DNA from: a virus
Strand: one strand, 5' to 3'
Length of the DNA stretch: 5,758 nt
IMG/VR virus record: IMGVR_UViG_3300010219_000019
Span: 1-5,758 of that record
In this document: positions 1-5,758 of the stretch, piece by piece
Numbering within the stretch: the stretch's first letter is position 1
Layout of the letters: each line of letters opens with the position of its first letter
The notes under the pieces: model-generated
Told to the model about the DNA's origin: nothing
Databases searched by the model: none
The model's input: the letters and a program-made list of their open reading frames with translations, nothing else
Translations under genes and position numbers: made by a program

Positions 1-55
1 GGCTTTGGCGGCGGTTCGTGCCCGCAGGACATTACCGTGAGCGTGCAGGGCGGAA
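1..55. repeat. Terminal direct repeat, exact copy of 5704-5758 (circular-closure overlap)
   Basis: Base-by-base comparison shows ggctttggcggcggttcgtgcccgcaggacattaccgtgagcgtgcagggcggaa at both ends. Confidence 0.95.
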
Positions 56-189
56 CCTCGCTGAAGGTGTTTTCTTATGCCAAGGGTTGCGAGTTGGTGA
101 GCGGGTACGTAAAGCCCGTCGTTCTTCTGCTTTCCCTCTGGGCGGCGTACATCATTTTGATTCCGGGCGGACCGGGGAGGGTGGACTGA
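1..189 (+). CDS. C-terminal part of the pIII-like adsorption/minor coat protein. It continues the ORF that leaves the window at 5758; 1-55 duplicate 5704-5758.
   Basis: Position 5704 is a codon start in the frame of the 4435 ORF and equals position 1. Frame 1 then reads GFGGGSCPQDITVSVQGGTSLKVFSYAKGCELVSGYVKPVVLLLSLWAAYIILIPGGPGRVD and stops at TGA 187-189. The hydrophobic C-terminal anchor is typical of pIII-type proteins. The stop overlaps the next ATG (TGATG). Confidence 0.75.
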   Translation, partial: GFGGGSCPQDITVSVQGGTSLKVFSYAKGCELVSGYVKPVVLLLSLWAAYIILIPGGPGRVD

Positions 190-476
190 TGCGGCTTGGA
201 ACGTGGCTGCTTGCGATGCTTCAGCCGATGCTCGCCAAGGCGCTGGTCGCCTTGGGCTTTTCCGTGGTGTCCATCACCGGCCTTCAGGCCATCACCGATA
301 ACCTCAAGTCGCAGGCGACTAGCGCACTCGGGCTGCTCTCTCCTGAGATGCTCAATCTTTTTCTTCTGGCTGGTGGCGCGCAGGGCCTCGGGATCATTCT
401 CGGCGCCTGTACGACCAAGCTCATGCTCTGGCAGATCCAGTCCGCAACCAAGATCCTCGGCACTAACCCGGGATAG
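189..476 (+). CDS. pVI-like small integral membrane protein (95 aa), of the type found immediately upstream of zot in many inoviruses (DUF2523-like, recalled not searched)
   Basis: ATG at 189 follows GGAGG (176-180) with an 8-nt spacer. The start overlaps the pIII stop by 1 nt. The product is very hydrophobic (MRLGTWLLAMLQPMLAKALVALGFSVV...GLGIILGACTTKLMLW). It lies between the pIII-like and pI-like genes. The GTG-18 extension in the ORF track overlaps the pIII C-terminus and is not needed. Confidence 0.7.
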   Translation: MRLGTWLLAMLQPMLAKALVALGFSVVSITGLQAITDNLKSQATSALGLLSPEMLNLFLLAGGAQGLGIILGACTTKLMLWQIQSATKILGTNPG

Positions 477-506
477 CGCCGCCAAGCCCTTCGTAGGAGC
501 CACACT

Positions 507-1658
507 ATGCAAACCCTCATCACCGGTACGCCGGGCGCCGGAAAGACCCTCTACGCGATTCAGAGCCTCATCCTTCCCATGCTCGGTCAGGAGGTGACGT
601 ATATCGACGCGGATGGCGAGACTCACACTGTCAAGCGGAGGCTGTTCACCAACATCAAGGGTTTTCAAATCGACCATGAGTTGGTCGAGGCTGGTCCTGG
701 CTGGGATCACGGCACCAAGGGCGGCTGGAGCCAGCCGGACGGCAGCAACAAGAAGGGCTGGCACAACTGGCATGAGTGGGCGCCGGTCGGTGCCATCCTG
801 GTCGTTGACGAGTTCCAGCGCATCTGGCCGAAGCGCGCGAACGGTTCGCCGGTGCCGCCCGATGTGTCGGCCATGGACACACACCGGCATATGGGGGTGG
901 ACTTCATCCTCATCACCCAGAAATTCAGCTTCGACGGCCACATTGAGGGCCTGATCGGGCGCCATCTGCACGTGCGGCGGATTGCCATGATGCCGCTGGC
1001 TATCGTTTACGAGTGGGATGAGGTGTCGAAGTCTCGTCTGTACTCCAAGGCGATCCAGAAACGCCCGTTCCGCTACGACAAGAAGGTCTATCAGCTCTAT
1101 CACTCTGCGGACGCTCACACGAAGCAACCGCGCAAGGTGCCGACGCTGGTCTATGTCGTGCTGGCGGCGCTCGCGTTCGCGGCCTATCAGGTGCCGAACA
1201 GCTGGCAACGGATCACCGGCAAGGGTGAGGAATACGCTAAGCGGACATCTTCCGGGAAGACGACGACAGCGGCCCCGGCAGACCGGGCCAGCGCAGCGCC
1301 GCACGGTCTGCCGGGGCCGCTGGCGGCGGCGTCCGCTCCTTCGGTCGCTGCTGCGGTTCCTGCCGGGCCGGTGCACATGGGGTGTATTGCGTCGGCCTCG
1401 AGGTGTGAGTGTTTCGGGCAGACCGGGGAACGGATCAATGTCGAGGAAAACGAGTGCCGGGAAGCATCGCACCGCGTTTCGTATGTCCTGGGGGGGTATG
1501 GGGCATCGCCCCATGGTGAACGTTCGGCGGGGTACCCGCTGAACCGGCCGGAGCCTGTTTCGTCGGTGCCGTCCGCGCCTTCACCTGGCGCTAGTGCTCC
1601 TGTGGTGTCGGAACGTGGGCACAATCTCAAGCCACCGATGCCGGTTTCATCGTCCTAG
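507..1658 (+). CDS. zot: Zot / pI-family phage assembly ATPase (383 aa)
   Basis: Walker A GTPGAGKT (525-548). Walker B ILVVDE (795-812). A central TM segment (VPTLVYVVLAALAFAAYQV) is followed by an Ala/Pro-rich, Cys-containing C-terminal domain. TAGGAG (494-499) plus a 7-nt spacer precedes the ATG. Confidence 0.9.
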   Translation: MQTLITGTPGAGKTLYAIQSLILPMLGQEVTYIDADGETHTVKRRLFTNIKGFQIDHELVEAGPGWDHGTKGGWSQPDGSNKKGWHNWHEWAPVGAILVVDEFQRIWPKRANGSPVPPDVSAMDTHRHMGVDFILITQKFSFDGHIEGLIGRHLHVRRIAMMPLAIVYEWDEVSKSRLYSKAIQKRPFRYDKKVYQLYHSADAHTKQPRKVPTLVYVVLAALAFAAYQVPNSWQRITGKGEEYAKRTSSGKTTTAAPADRASAAPHGLPGPLAAASAPSVAAAVPAGPVHMGCIASASRCECFGQTGERINVEENECREASHRVSYVLGGYGASPHGERSAGYPLNRPEPVSSVPSAPSPGASAPVVSERGHNLKPPMPVSSS

Positions 1659-2046
1659 AAAACAGACTGCGGCCCTTGTGCCATCCCGCAGTTAATACGA
1701 TGCATATTCCGTCAATCACCTTCTGACGCAATTCCCCAACGCTCTCTGTTGCGGAAGTGACGAAAATCTCCGGCCCGCCAGCCAAAAAACCCCCCTTCAT
1801 CACGTCGAGAATTTGGCGGCCTTCCTCTGTTTTCGCAAGTTGATCTTGCGATCTGGCTAGCAACGCTTCTTCGATGCGTACGCCCGCGATGATGGCCATC
1901 TTTCCGATGTGCACCTCTGTGGGAACGCTTTTCCCCATCTTCCAATCCGTCAGCAGTTGACGCGATACGCCGAGTTTCCCGGCAAGCTTGGACCGCGACC
2001 CGCATACTTTCGCCGCCCTGTCAATAAGTGTTTTAGTAAGTTCCAT
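1627..2046 (-). CDS. Cro/CI-type helix-turn-helix transcriptional repressor (139 aa), the only minus-strand gene
   Basis: ATG at 2046 follows GGAGG (complement of 2052-2056) with a 5-nt spacer. The GTG at 2052 given in the track overlaps this SD, so it is unlikely to be the start. The N-terminal HTH-like segment is GSRSKLAGKLGVSRQLLTDWKMGK. The gene is divergent from the replication/structural operon, as in other temperate inoviruses. Confidence 0.75.
   Translation of the reverse strand: MELTKTLIDRAAKVCGSRSKLAGKLGVSRQLLTDWKMGKSVPTEVHIGKMAIIAGVRIEEALLARSQDQLAKTEEGRQILDVMKGGFLAGGPEIFVTSATESVGELRQKVIDGICIVLTAGWHKGRSLFSRTMKPASVA
1666..1692. terminator. Candidate bidirectional hairpin between the convergent zot and repressor genes (ACTGCGG, 13-nt loop, CCGCAGT)
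   Basis: A 7-bp perfect stem (1666-1672 / 1686-1692) starts 8 nt after the zot stop. On the - strand it is followed by CTGTTTTCT. On the + strand there is no U-run, only relatively AT-rich sequence. The hairpin lies inside the last ~20 codons of the repressor ORF, which argues against simple termination of that transcript. Confidence 0.3.
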
Positions 2047-2111
2047 GTCCACCTCCGGCTGAGCTACGCTCCGGGCGTCAGAACATGTCTGACGTTTCTA
2101 GGAGCCACAAT
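2047..2111. promoter_or_regulatory. Divergent control region between the repressor and the ssDNA-binding gene. It is the longest non-coding stretch in the genome.
   Basis: Position between two divergent starts, each with its own SD. It contains the inverted repeat at 2076-2094 and two CTCCGG direct repeats (2053-2058 and 2069-2074). I could not assign convincing -35/-10 hexamers by eye. Confidence 0.5.
2076..2094. promoter_or_regulatory. Candidate operator: inverted repeat CGTCAGA-acatg-TCTGACG
   Basis: Perfect 7-bp arms with a 5-nt spacer, 6 nt upstream of the ssDNA-binding gene SD. The geometry suits a dimeric HTH repressor. Confidence 0.45.
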
Positions 2112-2396
2112 ATGATCCGTATCACCGTTCCGGCCCTGCCGGTTCGCAACATGAAGGGCATCGGCAAGACCAGCCAGAAGCCCTACGACCTCAACATCCA
2201 GACCGTCTATTGTCACGTCGCTGACGAGAACGGCAAGGCCCTTCCGTTCCCGGAAAAGTCGGAGGTGATCCTCGACGCTGGCCAGTCGCCCTTCGTTCCC
2301 GGCGACTACACCTTGTCCCCCGCCTCGCTGTACGTCGATCGTCAAGGTCGGCTCGCGGTGGCTCCCAAGCTGGTCCCGATCGCGTCGAAGTCCTGA
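2112..2396 (+). CDS. Gene V-like ssDNA-binding protein (94 aa)
   Basis: TAGGAG (2099-2104) plus a 7-nt spacer precedes ATG 2112, which fits better than the upstream ATG 2085 lying inside the operator. It is a small protein and the first gene of the + operon. From memory it resembles the Pf3-type ssDNA-binding protein (KPYDL, PFP, PGDYTL, RQGRLAV segments). This is unverified. Confidence 0.6.
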   Translation: MIRITVPALPVRNMKGIGKTSQKPYDLNIQTVYCHVADENGKALPFPEKSEVILDAGQSPFVPGDYTLSPASLYVDRQGRLAVAPKLVPIASKS

Positions 2397-2413
2397 GCGG
2401 GGGACACCCTCTC

Positions 2414-2602
2414 ATGGTGGACGCATACCACGCTGCGCGCTTGGTGGCCGTAGAGGCTGCCTTGCGCTCGTTGCTGGCTGAGGCCCAGACCTCGGACGCT
2501 CACGATGCGCCGGACGCGGTTGAAGCTGCGTTCACGGCTGACGGTGGGCTCGATGTGACCTACACCCGGCACGGGGTGCCGGTGAGCGGGGAGGGCATGT
2601 GA
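2414..2602 (+). CDS. Hypothetical small acidic Ala-rich protein (62 aa, net charge about -7)
   Basis: ATG follows GGGGGA (2399-2404). My hand count of third-position GC is roughly 80 percent. The stop overlaps the next start (ATGTGA). Confidence 0.55.
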   Translation: MVDAYHAARLVAVEAALRSLLAEAQTSDAHDAPDAVEAAFTADGGLDVTYTRHGVPVSGEGM

Positions 2603-2745
2603 GCAGGCAAGCCCGCTACCTCCGGTTGCTCGCATCGTGGTGCTCTTGGAGTGCGGAGGAACAGGATCGCCTGTCGTCGCGCGACCTTTGGGCCTTCGAT
2701 CAACTGCGCGCGCAAGCTGCGCACCTCATCGGGTTTATGGCATGA
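2599..2745 (+). CDS. Hypothetical protein (48 aa, GTG start), below the ORF-track size cutoff
   Basis: GTG 2599 is the first possible start after an in-frame stop at 2539. GGAGG (2590-2594) lies just upstream. The start overlaps the previous stop and the ORF's stop overlaps the next ATG (ATGA). Third-position GC is about three quarters in this frame and about half in the competing 2637 frame. The product is MSRQARYLRLLASWCSWSAEEQDRLSSRDLWAFDQLRAQAAHLIGFMA. Confidence 0.45.
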   Translation: MSRQARYLRLLASWCSWSAEEQDRLSSRDLWAFDQLRAQAAHLIGFMA

Positions 2746-2936
2746 ACTCGTCGTCGTTCAAGCAGTGGCGCGGCGGCATCGGGTCGCGCTGGCATCTTCG
2801 CATCGCCGGGTACTCCGGGCACATCGTTCAGGTCGTCAACGACTTTGGCGACCTCGTTGCGGTGTCGGGTCAGTGCCGCCGTGTTCGCCTTGCTCGCTAC
2901 GTCATGAAGTACGCGCGGAAGGTCGGCGCGGCATGA
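2742..2936 (+). CDS. Hypothetical 64-aa protein ending in a copy of the Rep active-site tyrosine motif (RYVMKYARK)
   Basis: Internal ATG of track ORF 2637-2936, overlapping the previous stop (ATGA). Third-position GC is above 80 percent by hand count. The C-terminal ARYVMKYARKVGAA matches Rep VRYVMKYASKFDSK. Confidence 0.55.
   Translation: MNSSSFKQWRGGIGSRWHLRIAGYSGHIVQVVNDFGDLVAVSGQCRRVRLARYVMKYARKVGAA
2898..2914 (+). repeat. Exact 17-nt repeat tacgtcatgaagtacgc, copy 1 (copy 2 at 3655-3671)
   Basis: Direct comparison. Both copies are read in frame as YVMKYA. Confidence 0.9.
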
Positions 2937-3082
2937 GGCGCGGCTATCTCACTGATTCGCGCTGGGGCGTCTACTGCGACGGCTGCGGCCTATCTCGCTG
3001 GGCGCGCTCGCTGCTCACGCGGCATCTGCCCGTGTGCGACGAGCATGGTTGCTGGCGCATCGAGTGCGGGTGCTCGGCATGA
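2933..3082 (+). CDS. Small Cys-rich putative zinc-finger protein (49 aa)
   Basis: Internal ATG of track ORF 2651-3082, overlapping the previous stop (ATGA). High third-position GC. The Cys pattern is C15-x2-C18-x16-C35-x4-C40, with additional C45, C47, H31 and H38. Confidence 0.55.
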   Translation: MRRGYLTDSRWGVYCDGCGLSRWARSLLTRHLPVCDEHGCWRIECGCSA

Positions 3083-3996
3083 GGCTGCACTCTGGCACCG
3101 GGGAGGCGCCGCGCAGCGGCGCTGGGGGGCTTGTCCCCAGCATCAACAAGGGGGAAACGCCCCGCAAGGGCCTTCGTGTTGCCCCGGGCGTTGGCCCCCG
3201 GCGTATGGAGACTTCGCGGGATCGGTTCAACGATCTCCGCGAGGGCAGGGTGACGGCGGAGGTCATCACGATTGACACCGTGGAAGCCCGTTGCACTCGC
3301 CTGCGCAAGAACCTCGGGGTCGCTGCCAAGTGGCTGTCTCAGGGGGAAGGGCACGCTTGGATGCTGACCCTCACCTATCGGGACGATGTGGAGTGGTCCC
3401 CCGGGCACGTGAAAGCCTGCATCGCGCATCTGCGTAAGTGGGTGGCGCGCACCTACGGCGGCGCGCTGCGGTATGTCTGGGTGATGGAAACGAAGGCGCG
3501 TCTTTCGGGAGGCAGGAAGGGCGAGTTCCGCCCGCATTACCACGTGGTGGTGTGGCTCCCCAAGGGTGTGCACGCGAGTTCGCTGCACCTCGATGAGAAG
3601 GGCTGGTGGCCTCACGGCATGACGAATGTTGTTCTGGCGGTTGCGCCGGTGCGGTACGTCATGAAGTACGCCAGCAAGTTCGACAGCAAGGACAGTTTTC
3701 CGAAGGGGGCAAGGTGCTATGGCGTTGGTGGCATGGGGTCTGTTGGTCGGCGTTGCCGTACTTGGATCAATCGCCCTCGTTTCGTGCAGGCGCGTGCTGA
3801 CATCTTCACCCGTGTCCGTCGAGCAGTCGGCGGCGGCTGGGATATTGGCGGCACTCACTACGCATCGGAGTGGGCTCTCGCCGGTCGCGGAGGCTCGCTT
3901 GCGCGCCTTGTGCGCGTCGTCACTCATCCCCCGACCGGCATCCAGCCGGACGGCCCGTTTTCCTTCCTCCGCGCTGGCTCCGCAGCGGCAGCGTGA
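3079..3996 (+). CDS. HUH rolling-circle replication initiator, two-tyrosine type (305 aa if it starts at 3079; alternative start ATG 3205)
   Basis: Motif 1 LTLTY (3364-3378). HUH motif HYHVVVW (3535-3555). Motif 3 YVMKY-ASK (3655-3669 onward). This layout resembles phiX174 gpA and P2 gpA (YVAKYVNK type). ATG 3079 overlaps the upstream stop (ATGA). The first ~40 codons are low-complexity and hairpin-rich, so the start is uncertain. Confidence 0.85.
   Translation: MRLHSGTGEAPRSGAGGLVPSINKGETPRKGLRVAPGVGPRRMETSRDRFNDLREGRVTAEVITIDTVEARCTRLRKNLGVAAKWLSQGEGHAWMLTLTYRDDVEWSPGHVKACIAHLRKWVARTYGGALRYVWVMETKARLSGGRKGEFRPHYHVVVWLPKGVHASSLHLDEKGWWPHGMTNVVLAVAPVRYVMKYASKFDSKDSFPKGARCYGVGGMGSVGRRCRTWINRPRFVQARADIFTRVRRAVGGGWDIGGTHYASEWALAGRGGSLARLVRVVTHPPTGIQPDGPFSFLRAGSAAAA
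3121..3241 (+). other. Cluster of GC-rich stem-loops: candidate origin, packaging signal or translational control element
   Basis: GCTGGGG-7nt-CCCCAGC (3121-3141). GGGG-aaacg-CCCC (3151-3163). GGGC-gttg-GCCC (3186-3197). CGCGGGATCG-gttcaa-CGATC(T)CCGCG, a 10-bp stem with one bulge (3215-3241). Confidence 0.4.
3655..3671 (+). repeat. Exact 17-nt repeat tacgtcatgaagtacgc, copy 2 (inside Rep motif 3)
   Basis: Identical to 2898-2914. Confidence 0.9.
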
Positions 3997-4028
3997 GGTT
4001 TTTCAATCCCTGCGGTAGGAGTGTTCTC

Positions 4029-4238
4029 ATGAAAAAGCAAATCGCCCTTCGCCTCGCCTCCATTCCGGCGTTCGTCCTCGCCACCATCGGCGGCGCGCAC
4101 GCTGCGGTGCCGGAAGGCGTGACTACGGCCATCACCTCGGCCGGCGCCGATCTGGTGACGGTCGTGACCGCCGTCATCGTGGCGTTCATCGCCTTTTGGG
4201 GCCTGCGCAAGCTGGGCGCCAAGTTCGGCTGGCTGTAA
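4029..4238 (+). CDS. Major coat protein (pVIII-like), a 69-aa precursor
   Basis: TAGGAG (4016-4021) plus a 7-nt spacer precedes ATG 4029. The signal peptide MKKQIALRLASIPAFVLATIGGAHA has an AHA-A cleavage site. The mature ~44 aa has an acidic N-terminus (E, D), a hydrophobic core (LVTVVTAVIVAFIAFWGL) and a basic C-terminus (RKLGAKFGWL). The track's 3870 start is an upstream extension overlapping rep. Confidence 0.85.
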   Translation: MKKQIALRLASIPAFVLATIGGAHAAVPEGVTTAITSAGADLVTVVTAVIVAFIAFWGLRKLGAKFGWL

Positions 4239-4256
4239 TCCGCCCGGGCGCTCTCC

Positions 4257-4442
4257 ATGGACCCGATCCAGACGACCAGCTGCACCGGTGAGTGCACCGT
4301 GACGCTGGTCGTGGAGAGCGCGCCCATCACCGTGGAGAACGCGGACGACCTCATGGGGATGTGGTGGGGTTTCATGGCGGCGCTGGCGGCCGTCTGGGGT
4401 CTCAAACGCATCTACGCACTTTTCAATTCCGACAATGGCTGA
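4257..4442 (+). CDS. Small coat-like membrane protein (61 aa), a candidate minor virion protein
   Basis: Very high third-position GC (about 87 percent by hand count). It has an acidic N-terminal half, one TM segment (MWWGFMAALAAVWGL) and then a basic KR. No signal peptide and no clear SD. It lies between the major coat and pIII-like genes. Confidence 0.6.
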   Translation: MDPIQTTSCTGECTVTLVVESAPITVENADDLMGMWWGFMAALAAVWGLKRIYALFNSDNG

Positions 4443-5758
4443 CCATGTTCAATCCGCAGGAAATGTTTTTCGCCGGTGGGCTGCTGCTGCTCTTGTGGGT
4501 CTGCTGGGGCTAGTCCTCGGCACGGCTCACGCGGGTTCGCTCACGCGCACCAATTACGGCGGCTTCGAAGTCCTCGGCTCCGGCAAGTCTTGGACCTTCG
4601 GCGACGCGAAGCCGCGACCTGGTGACATTGGCTGGGTTGATGACTACAACTACGGCGGCGGGTCGGCGAAGGCTGGCCCGTACTCCATGGGCGGCGACAG
4701 TTCCGGCCCTTATGCAAAGGCTCGCGGTACGCTGCCGATTCCAGGCTCCAACGGTCGTTCCGTTCCCGTCGATGTGACGGGGCGCATCCCCAAAAGTGGG
4801 GCGGGCAGTGCGGCGCGTGCCATTGGCACCTTCGCAGGCAAGATGCTTTATCCGGTGACTGCGGGCATGGCGATTTATGACCTGCTAAAAGACCTCGGCT
4901 ACATCGGCAAAGACATCGACGGCGACGGCCAGATTGACTGGATGAAGCCCGATCCGACGGCGGGGTGGTGCACCACGTCTCCGTGCTACGAATACAAGGC
5001 CGACGTTTTGGGACAGACGACCGGCCTCTATTACCGCACCGCGTCCGCTGCCTGCGATTCGGCCTTTGCGCTGTCGCCTCCTGCGGGTTACTCGCTGCGC
5101 AACAAGGCCTACGACCCGACCACGAACAGTAGCTATCCGTACGGGCGGTGTACCTATCAGTACAGCTACAACGGCGGCGCATGGACGTCCGCTAGTACGG
5201 TGGTTGGGGGCCGTACGCGTGCGGTCGACACTGGCACGGCCCCGGAGGTTGAGGCGTCTTTGCAGGAGCTTGAGGACAAGATTGCCAGCATGTCTGGCTG
5301 GCCTACTAAGGCGAACGCGGCGCTTGCGGATGCCATCAACAATGGTGAGTCCGTCGAGCATGCCTCCCCTACGGTCACTGGCCCATCCACCGTCGCGGGT
5401 GATACCACGACCAAACAGGAGCCCGCGCAGAAGGCGGACGGCACGCCGGGCACCAAGACGACCACGACCACGAACAACTACAACACTACCTATAACAACA
5501 ACACCGTGACGGTGACGCAGACGACGACGACGACTTCCACCACCGTCTACAGCGACGGCACCACTGAGACCAGCACGGAGACCGAAGAAAAAGAGCCTGA
5601 GTGCAAGGCCGAAGACAAGACGGTCGGTTGCGCGGAGATGGACGTTCCGGAGGGTGAGATTCCCAAGACTTCCAAGGCGCTCACGTATGCCGCGGAGGTT
5701 CTTGGCTTTGGCGGCGGTTCGTGCCCGCAGGACATTACCGTGAGCGTGCAGGGCGGAA
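4435..5758 (+). CDS. pIII-like adsorption / minor coat protein, N-terminal and central part. The ORF is open at the window end and continues at 56-189 (485 aa in total).
   Basis: It is absent from the ORF track because no stop is reached. ATG 4435 overlaps the stop of the previous gene (ATGGCTGA). The signal peptide is MADHVQSAGNVFRRWAAAALVGLLGLVLGTAHA-G. There is a Gly/Tyr-rich N-domain, a Thr/Asn-rich linker and a Cys-containing C-domain. Third-position GC is high throughout. The C-terminal region is reminiscent of TspB C-terminal-domain proteins of other inoviruses (recollection only). Confidence 0.75.
   Translation, partial: MADHVQSAGNVFRRWAAAALVGLLGLVLGTAHAGSLTRTNYGGFEVLGSGKSWTFGDAKPRPGDIGWVDDYNYGGGSAKAGPYSMGGDSSGPYAKARGTLPIPGSNGRSVPVDVTGRIPKSGAGSAARAIGTFAGKMLYPVTAGMAIYDLLKDLGYIGKDIDGDGQIDWMKPDPTAGWCTTSPCYEYKADVLGQTTGLYYRTASAACDSAFALSPPAGYSLRNKAYDPTTNSSYPYGRCTYQYSYNGGAWTSASTVVGGRTRAVDTGTAPEVEASLQELEDKIASMSGWPTKANAALADAINNGESVEHASPTVTGPSTVAGDTTTKQEPAQKADGTPGTKTTTTTNNYNTTYNNNTVTVTQTTTTTSTTVYSDGTTETSTETEEKEPECKAEDKTVGCAEMDVPEGEIPKTSKALTYAAEVLGFGGGSCPQDITVSVQGG
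5452..5583 (+). repeat. Low-complexity Thr/Asn-coding tract with short tandem repeats, including (ACG)4 at 5521-5532 and ACGACC repeats at 5458-5472
   Basis: It translates as TKTTTTTNNYNTTYNNNTVTVTQTTTTTSTTVYSDGTTETSTET, an interdomain linker of the pIII-like protein. Confidence 0.8.
5704..5758. repeat. Terminal direct repeat, exact copy of 1-55
   Basis: See feature 1-55. Confidence 0.95.

Follow-up and report, generated by a model that had tools for sequence, protein, structure and literature searches.

The gene set of filamentous phages is usually portrayed as minimal and fixed. Ivey-Hoyle and Steege reportedly described how genes V, VII, IX and VIII of the Ff coliphages (M13/f1/fd) are coupled in translation, and in tailed phages Hendrix, Juhala and Clark are said to have described 'morons' and mosaic joints that fall at gene boundaries. 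In the Xanthomonas phages phiLf/phiLf-UK a fragment within gene II (gII; nucleotides (nt) 245-365) has been found experimentally to hold the replication origin and packaging signal, and this origin comprises a CTTG recognition sequence and a hairpin with a GNA loop (bioRxiv 10.1101/2023.12.30.573655). Here we describe a run of four small open reading frames (ORF1 to ORF4) between gene V (gV) and the gene for the replication initiator (rep, encoding Rep) in a filamentous phage, IMG/VR virus record IMGVR_UViG_3300010219_000019; the window that we analysed is the whole stretch from position 1 to 5,758 of that record. We think it probable that positions 2112-3996 constitute one early replication operon with a gene-cassette slot inside it, and that translation is coupled there at least at the weak starts of ORF3 and Rep.

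A first-pass annotation of the window had read the region as a chain of stop/start overlaps leading to rep, and its geometry holds up well. The junctions are ATGTGA at 2597-2602 (with the GTG start of ORF2 at 2599) and GCATGA at 2740-2745, 2931-2936 and 3077-3082, the ORFs are 62, 48, 64 and 49 amino acids (aa) long, and every frame is shifted by -1 relative to the preceding one. The GC content of third codon positions (GC3) moves with the frame as claimed, this being the highest of the codon positions in each ORF (0.79, 0.73, 0.83 and 0.82). When any chain of ORFs joined by -4/-1 overlaps and extending past 3109 is accepted, 11.6% of dinucleotide shuffles pass this lax test, so that tiling alone is weak evidence in a sequence of 63% GC. 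A strict test, requiring that ORFs of at least 40 aa with -4/-1 overlaps span the whole interval between the gV stop codon and the Rep ATG (3079), was passed by some chain in 3.2% of 5000 shuffles and by a four-ORF chain in 0.04% (2/5000). There are five copies of GCATGA in the window, and the probability that all three ATGA junctions (3/3) would be GCATGA is ~0.007, given the usage of NNA codons. The four-ORF chain exceeds chance, and the comparative data are the stronger argument.

Whole-genome megablast against 50,697 GenBank phage records gave no match, and the nearest named Reps are those of the Xanthomonas phages Xf109, phiLf and Cf1c (~34% identity). Rep homologues number 1188, and a Rep profile (alignment A1) retrieved 80 metagenomic, 61 viral and 12 genomic loci; a scan of the genomic contigs with the single Rep protein gave no match, and the profile-based scan succeeded there. 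The genomic loci include prophages of Acidovorax, Variovorax, Comamonas and other Burkholderiales in which Rep is ~40% identical, and the phage belongs to an uncharacterised clade, to which prophages of Comamonadaceae and other Burkholderiales are more distantly related. An upstream gV accompanies Rep in 88 related loci. Shortest-path tiling of the interval between the two genes worked in 63/69 distinct loci, and all 63 have the same layout, with gV followed by an ORF1 homologue of ~64 aa, zero to five further small ORFs, and Rep. Clustering of their slot ORFs into families places F1, the family of ORF1, in 63/63 loci, F2, that of ORF2, in 35/63 and F3 in 10, along with several small families and 36 singletons. 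In the clustering ORF3 is a singleton, and ORF4 falls together only with an 80-aa ORF of the related locus L029. The proposal that the four ORFs form one module is therefore not borne out, for ORF1 is a core gene and ORF2 a semi-core gene, whereas ORF3 and ORF4 are rare cassettes with one relative each.

The arrangement of the junctions is more constant than the genes that they join. Among 173 internal junctions of the relatives, 97 are 4-nt overlaps (ATGA/GTGA) and 54 are 1-nt overlaps (TGATG/TAATG), together 151/173, compared with 4/17 for -4/-1 overlaps at the late-gene junctions of three genomes with database gene calls. Conservation of the junctions in relatives had been named as a check, and as a class the overlaps are indeed conserved, which fits coupling.

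That the region is protein-coding is established by the conservation of the ORF1 and ORF2 families in relatives, and by the excess of synonymous differences and the in-frame gap seen in ORF3. The stretch from 2397 to 3078 might otherwise have been read as a long structured non-coding region, but we have found no points in support of this and regard it as hardly credible: its RNA fold z-score of -0.77 is no better than that of shuffles, it has no match to an Rfam family, conservation of ORF1, ORF2 and ORF3 is at the protein level with in-frame indels, and ORF1 has a confidently predicted fold. Two longer alternative ORFs (2637-2936 and 2651-3082) are open, with 99 and 143 aa, and could in principle be the real genes. 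In their upstream parts, however, GC3 is only 0.51 and 0.57, as had been pointed out, against 0.73-0.83 in the short ORFs; ORF2 is conserved over its full length, C-terminus included, in the other frame; in the database ORF3 is called in its 64-aa form (P0121); and the homologous ORFs in the related loci L029 and L158 start at junctions. Family N-termini likewise begin at the junction starts, with the motifs 'MSxxARxL' in ORF2 and 'MxxAxHAARL' in ORF1, and it is the short ORFs that are right, the longer ones being very improbable as genes.

The four products had been described as soluble-looking and as acidic, helical or Cys-rich. None contains a membrane-like segment, and a hydrophobic span like those of gVII and gIX is absent from ORF1-4, with a maximal 19-residue hydropathy of 0.21-0.97 compared with 2.27 for the coat protein. 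Acidic, on the other hand, is apt for ORF1 (pI 4.4) and not for ORF2, ORF3 or ORF4 (pI 8.0, 11.3 and 8.3). Searches with ORF1-4 yielded no match in Pfam (above cutoff), PHROGs, NCBIfam, PADLOC or PDB sequences. The earlier comparison with the interval between gene V and the coat genes of canonical inoviruses is inapplicable, since here rep sits between gV and the coat gene, and the array accordingly belongs to the replication operon and not to the gVII/gIX position.

Comparison of closely related genomes shows how the content of the slot changes. L129 and L130 are 92-94% identical on both sides of a 699-nt ORF that L130 has exactly at the F2/Rep overlap, with GCATGAG at both of its ends, and L122 differs from L129 by a 49-aa ORF inserted exactly at the F1/F2 overlap. 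Among 14 pairwise indel events, ~7 of them independent, 10 breakpoints are no more than 10 nt from a junction and the rest no more than 14 nt, with the expectation being that 10.8% of slot positions lie that close to one; gain and loss thus concern whole ORFs and take place at the overlaps. In the window itself a 14-nt direct repeat (D9; 2926-2939 and 3072-3085) flanks ORF4, with 11 identical bases, CGGCATGAGGC, at the ORF3/ORF4 and ORF4/Rep junctions. ORF3 and ORF4 thus appear to be recent acquisitions inserted exactly at overlap junctions, and such insertion would account both for CGGCATGAGGC on the two sides of ORF4 and for the presence of three GCATGA junctions. The first of these, between ORF2 and ORF3, can be attributed to the conserved terminus of ORF2 (IGFMA followed by the stop codon), as the ORF2 homologues in L007 and L029 end in AHVIGFMA and AHLIGFMA with an identical GGCATGA junction. 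An ATGA overlap requires that the last sense codon end in A, and at ATGA junctions of the clade 32/66 terminal codons are GCA (Ala), compared with 18.9% of internal NNA codons. GCATGA follows unrelated proteins, including members of F1, F2, F3, F6, F7 and F10 as well as singletons.

The strengths of the translation starts were compared as Shine-Dalgarno (SD) duplex energies with the anti-Shine-Dalgarno sequence, which are -8.6 kcal/mol for ORF1, -11.5 for ORF2, -3.2 for ORF3, -6.4 for ORF4 and -4.6 for Rep. The SD of ORF2 is provided by the codons for the C-terminal G-E-G-M of ORF1 (GGGGAGGGCATG), and the conserved G-E-G codons are GGGGAGGG. A strong TAGGAG ribosome-binding site (RBS) precedes gV, the coat gene (4015-4020) and the Zot gene, and gV and Zot have a 16-nt initiation block in common, TAGGAGCCACA(C/A)TATG, at 2099-2114 and 494-509 (repeat D3); each of these three strong RBSs appears to lie at the head of one of the genome's three translation units. 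On the + strand from 2397 to 3996 a crude consensus scan, in which only sigma-70-type promoters were sought, found no promoter-like or terminator-like site.

We propose that a single mRNA would carry, in strand order, gV, ORF1, ORF2, ORF3, ORF4 and Rep. Ribosomes would load efficiently at the strong gV RBS, and also at ORF1 and ORF2 with their good SDs, while ORF3 and Rep would be translated mainly by ribosomes that, having terminated at a TGA, reinitiate at the ATG that overlaps it and begins one base further upstream (NNATGA). Because their SDs are weak, these two starts are likely to depend on termination-reinitiation, and the others can also initiate by themselves. The first-pass suggestion that the chain fixes the stoichiometry of Rep is a conjecture, only the ORF3 and Rep starts looking dependent on coupling. 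Low synthesis of Rep would thereby be tied to translation of the genes upstream. Within the slot, ORF1 would be the fixed core, ORF2 a common occupant and ORF3 and ORF4 recent arrivals; insertions that keep the stop/start overlap would keep Rep translation alive, and since Rep translation would depend on the chain, only junction-preserving insertions would survive.

Alternatively, the motif that the junctions have in common may in itself favour exchange from one phage to another. In this bolder form, which we put forward tentatively and without expecting that it will prove correct, (G)GCATGA(G) would be a shared linker for the exchange of whole promoterless ORF cassettes among phages of the clade, and the slot would be an integrase-free array. 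Exchange could proceed by microhomology or copy-choice recombination during single-stranded replication, and translational coupling would ensure expression of the newcomer and of the Rep gene behind it. If true, a linker of this kind would explain why GCATGA follows unrelated proteins, why junctions are duplicated around inserts, and why there are 36 singletons in 63 genomes.

ORF1 is the constant member of the array. Matches to it were found by tblastn in 52 loci, and an exhaustive HMMER scan of 1.84 billion representatives returned 29 clusters, 27 of which consist of stand-alone proteins 57-73 aa in length. Modelled with AlphaFold on the basis of these sequences (pLDDT 94.1, pTM 0.76), ORF1 is predicted to form one long helix (residues 4-27) packed on a three-stranded sheet, and a fold search with this model gave nothing significant (best E 0.26 in BFVD and 1.3 in PDB). 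The ORF1 family has no homologue by tblastn in the 50,697 GenBank phage records, and ORF11 and ORF12 of Xf109, considered as candidate homologues of ORF1, were rejected (hhalign probability 0.2-0.6%). The F2 consensus is 'MSxxARxLxxLRxW...LRxxAAxxIG(F/W)(M/G)(A/C)', followed by the stop (alignment A3), and ORF2 agrees with its family at both its N-terminus (MSxxARxL) and its C-terminus (AAxxIGFMA), so that the GTG start at 2599 is valid. Our best guess, which draws on position and conservation only, is that ORF1, always beside gV, and ORF2, usually near Rep, work with gV or Rep as clade-specific partners in replication or regulation.

ORF3 has a single homologue among 5.8 billion proteins, namely P0122 in L158. 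Homology to part of P0122 extends over the ORF3 core (2757-2863), within which 30/38 aligned residues are identical, the codon differences are 15 synonymous versus 8 non-synonymous, the nucleotide differences by codon position are 5/7/21, and the sole gap is of two codons, in frame; shifted ORF3 frames display no such pattern of conservation with L158. The synonymous excess and the third-position bias argue for purifying selection on the protein. The 3′ end of ORF3 (2895-2925) has a different origin, being an in-frame 31-nt copy, 84% identical, of Rep 3652-3682 (repeat D2), the DNA for the motif RYVMKYASK; in ORF3 it reads RYVMKYARKV, a fragment of Rep catalytic motif 3, and the rep motif-3 DNA of other phages is a better match (22/22 nt). 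That ORF3 as a whole might be a degenerate duplicate of Rep was considered and rejected, as hhalign aligned the 13-residue YVMKY segment only; derivation from Rep is confined to the last 31 nt, at the 3′ end. The 97-aa ORF P0122 of L158 (3582-3875) joins an origin-encoding N-terminal fragment of Rep (AGLVPSINNAET) to an ORF3-like core that follows it, and in the same genome the Rep body (P0077, 3872-4636) restarts at an overlapping ATG without that N-terminal motif, indicating that the residues encoded by the origin are not needed within the Rep polypeptide. Both genomes thus have pieces derived from rep next to ORF3-like sequence, an arrangement that points to recombination in and around rep.

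The product of ORF4 has six Cys in 49 residues (CxxC...C-x4-C-x4-C-x-C), and from this composition is probably a small metal-binding protein. Its only relative is an 80-aa ORF of L029 in the same place, directly before Rep, with which it has the motifs CDG..C and VCD(E/K)HGCWR(I/R)ECGC in common. A word-index homologue search with ORF4 found none, a single-sequence model was of low confidence (pLDDT 58) and was not used, and a match to DUF2752 was dismissed (16.8 bits against a cutoff of 27). Our best guess is that ORF3 and ORF4 are dispensable accessory proteins.

Another cassette family, F3, encodes proteins of 168-233 aa with the motifs HPPCRxWG and GGVLEHP and is usually located directly before Rep; it is carried by L001 (2000-2545), L036, L097, L101, L102, L104, L116, L130, L131 and L059. 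It is the largest accessory gene of the slot and may encode an enzyme, with no match in Pfam, NCBIfam or PADLOC. The recurrent families F2, F3, F4, F5, F6 and F8 have no usable match in Pfam, PHROGs, NCBIfam, PADLOC or PDB sequences.

Two other accounts of the array deserve fuller consideration. The overlaps could be a by-product of a small genome, with each ORF initiated by its own SD and with neither coupling nor control of Rep. SD-like sequences do lie before most starts in the family, with medians for the downstream starts of -4.7 to -7.0 compared with -2.2 at random positions, and because they are better than random family-wide, independent initiation could suffice and compaction stays alive as an explanation; the SDs of ORF1, ORF2 and ORF4 in the window agree with it, and some late-gene junctions overlap too. 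Yet those of ORF3 and Rep are weak, the frequency of overlaps in the slot, at 87%, is far above that at late-gene junctions, and inserted cassettes recreate the exact overlap every time, which suggests selection on the overlap itself. We judge compaction alone to be unlikely. Somewhat more doubtful still is the possibility that ORF3 and ORF4 are non-functional debris of recombination, kept open only as spacer ORFs for ribosomes reaching rep. The Rep motif-3 fragment at the 3′ end of ORF3 and the fusion of its only homologue to a Rep N-terminal/origin fragment would be expected of debris, as would the 36 singletons among the slot ORFs of relatives, and ORF4 has no word-index homologue, a low-confidence model and flat codon-usage scores. 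The 15 synonymous and 8 non-synonymous differences in the ORF3 core, with their strong third-position bias, nonetheless indicate selection on the protein, and ORF4 retains its six Cys and a 14-residue motif in common with the L029 ORF despite divergence elsewhere.

A number of observations weigh against a coupled operon with a cassette slot, even though we prefer it. Gene overlaps are common in compact phage genomes with or without coupling, and here we infer coupling, its effect on the level of Rep and all protein functions, in the case of coupling from sequence alone. ORF3 is a chimera that includes a piece of Rep, and some of it may be debris; ORF4, with one partial homologue, is the weakest-supported of the four ORFs. 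Codon-usage log-likelihoods in the window do not clearly favour the frames of ORF2 and ORF4, a comparison of low power for ORFs of ~50 codons and one in which the training gene gVI (start at 189) was one base off. The enrichment of GCATGA (32/66) counts loci regardless of shared ancestry, and the scan for promoters and terminators relied on a crude consensus. Lastly, in the database Rep (P0001, 263 aa) is called from ATG 3205, a start that omits the 42 N-terminal codons holding the origin; with a Rep start at 3205 the fourth junction would vanish.

On the last of these points homology favours the start at 3079. The Rep of L007 starts directly at the ORF2 stop, in MRLRAAEGEGPQAPGLVPSINN ('MRLRAAEGEG...GLVPSINN'), which matches MRLHSGTGEAPRSGAGGLVPSINKG from 3079, and in each of the 63 tiled relatives Rep includes the segment 3079-3205 in frame. 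Both starts may be used, to give full-length and N-truncated Rep as with gII/gX of Ff. The Rep motifs are HxH (HYHVVVW) and the tyrosine of YVMKY, and H111, H113, Y151 and Y155 (counted from the 3205 start) are invariant in alignment A1. The phage has the components of an Inoviridae replication module, these being an HUH Rep of PF23343, gene V (PF02303) and an origin within rep. An in-frame insertion of ~40 aa (3160-3282) separates the origin-encoded motif of Rep from its conserved ARCTRLRKNLG block; it is present in the closest relative, L003 (ARDRFSEVVSGRLEAETITVD), and absent from most other Reps.

The beginning of rep contains a hairpin, GCGCCGC-gca-GCGGCGC (3106-3122), followed by an invariant GGGCTTGTC at 3127-3135, which includes the CTTG Rep recognition sequence (3130-3133), and by ATCAACAA at 3143-3150. 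The DNA coding for 'GLVPSINN', GGGCTTGTC(C/T)C(C)AGTATCAACAAC, is near-invariant, third codon positions included, across Reps that are 35-70% identical in aa sequence, and it is read in two frames (SINN and VSTT subgroups) as the result of a 1-nt indel. Conservation of the element as DNA extends over 63 loci. A hairpin with a GNA triloop and a perfect stem of at least 5 bp is present in 80% of 55 distinct sequences compared with 10% of random control windows, with 30 different arms, the stem sequence varying yet staying paired. Xf109 and Cf1c have the same origin element inside rep. We therefore assign 3106-3150 as a predicted phiLf-type origin, homologous to the origin mapped in phiLf-UK. It begins 27 nt after the Rep ATG and forms the right-hand limit of the variable slot. 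The adjacent origin was also considered as a recombination hot spot for cassettes and this was rejected, since cassettes insert at the ORF1/ORF2 junction too, far from the origin; adjacency is therefore not required, and the origin is context only.

The first 55 nt of the window recur exactly at its end (1-55 = 5704-5758), and the window is thus a circularly permuted complete genome of ~5703 bp and 63% GC. Its Zot, gene V, Rep and coat-like genes are matched in Pfam and PHROG, from which the source is a filamentous phage (inovirus). The features of the genome that bear on the operon are listed in Table 1.

Table 1. Positions in the window of the replication operon, the genes around it and the predicted origin.
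Feature	Coordinates	Strand	Evidence or remark
Zot/gI	507-1658		Pfam/PHROG match
HTH repressor-like gene, 141 aa, divergent; left bound of operon	1627..2052	-	Pfam and PHROG matches (see text)
Gene V, ssDNA-binding protein, 94 aa, first operon gene	2112..2396	+	PF02303 E 1.8e-10; strong RBS TAGGAGCCACAATATG
ORF1, 62 aa	2414..2602	+	core family F1
ORF2, 48 aa, GTG start	2599..2745	+	semi-core family F2
ORF3, 64 aa	2742..2936	+	rare cassette
ORF4, 49 aa	2933..3082	+	rare cassette
Rep, rolling-circle replication initiator, 305 aa from ATG 3079	3079..3996	+	PF23343 E 2.6e-26; PHROG 2969
Predicted phiLf-type (+) origin, first 24 codons of rep	3106..3150	+	DNA conservation and homology
Coat-like gene	4029-4238		Pfam/PHROG match

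The product of the divergent gene has weak Pfam matches to YdaS, HTH_3 and CI-repressor HTH families, and matches PHROG 638 (transcriptional regulator) with E 2e-11. Between the coat gene and the gIII-like gene is an ORF (4257-4442) for an acidic protein of 61 aa with a hydrophobic C-terminal half, which is the sole candidate in the genome for a gVII/gIX-type tip protein. Within the low-complexity C-terminal part of the Zot gene there is a very stable hairpin (1255-1334) with 34-nt arms and a perfect core of ~19 bp; its z-score as folded single-stranded DNA is -7.2, none of 200 shuffles (0/200) folds equally well, and it may be a minus-strand origin or a signal for packaging. The only Rfam match, to mir-622, is spurious and is caused by this hairpin.

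ORF1 is worth pursuing, as it is universal in the clade and confidently folded and has no known fold. The small cassettes are a pool of uncharacterised phage proteins, among them Cys-rich mini-proteins and the family of 168-233 aa, with possible targets in the host or in competing phages.

The closest parallel in arrangement is with the Ff coliphages, in which a run of small genes also lies directly downstream of gene V with stop and start codons abutting or overlapping, and in which a poorly initiating downstream gene depends on upstream translation, as we infer here. The Ff run consists of hydrophobic virion proteins and leads to the coat gene, whereas the run described here leads to rep, and ORF1-4 have no membrane segment and, in Pfam and PHROG searches, no homology to Ff proteins. 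In Ff, moreover, gII is upstream of gV and under gV-mediated translational repression; setting the dosage of Rep by serial coupling from gene V, if true, would differ from this.

With phiLf, phiLf-UK, Xf109 and Cf1c (Xylivirus, Coriovirus) the phage has in common the Rep family (PF23343, 34% identity), an origin in rep with a GNA-triloop hairpin and GGGCTTGTC, and a divergent repressor. In Xf109 there are also two small ORFs (61 and 70 aa, with a 1-nt overlap) just upstream of rep. The gene order is different, with Rep followed by gV in those phages, Xf109 among them, and gV preceding Rep here, and no multi-cassette array has been reported for these Xanthomonas phages.

The turnover of cassettes is like the mosaicism of tailed phages in that close relatives differ by whole genes, insertions coincide with gene boundaries, and short sequences are shared at those boundaries. 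Morons usually bring their own promoter and terminator, whereas the cassettes here appear to be promoterless, lie within a probable operon, and recreate an exact 4-nt or 1-nt overlap. There is also a likeness to integrons, with their arrays of short, mostly promoterless, unrelated ORFs in variable number behind one upstream promoter. The junctions here differ in being microhomologies of 7-12 nt that hold the stop/start overlap, within repeats of 7-14 nt; none of the ORFs of the 5.7-kb genome has a recombinase match and no attC-like sites were seen, and as the genome is fully accounted for there is no room for an integrase. Overlapping, probably coupled genes are ordinary in compact phage genomes; the cassette-slot variant, by which a widespread unnamed clade (metagenomic genomes of 5-7 kb and Burkholderiales prophages) keeps zero to five unrelated small ORFs in its replication operon, is an undescribed form of this familiar arrangement.

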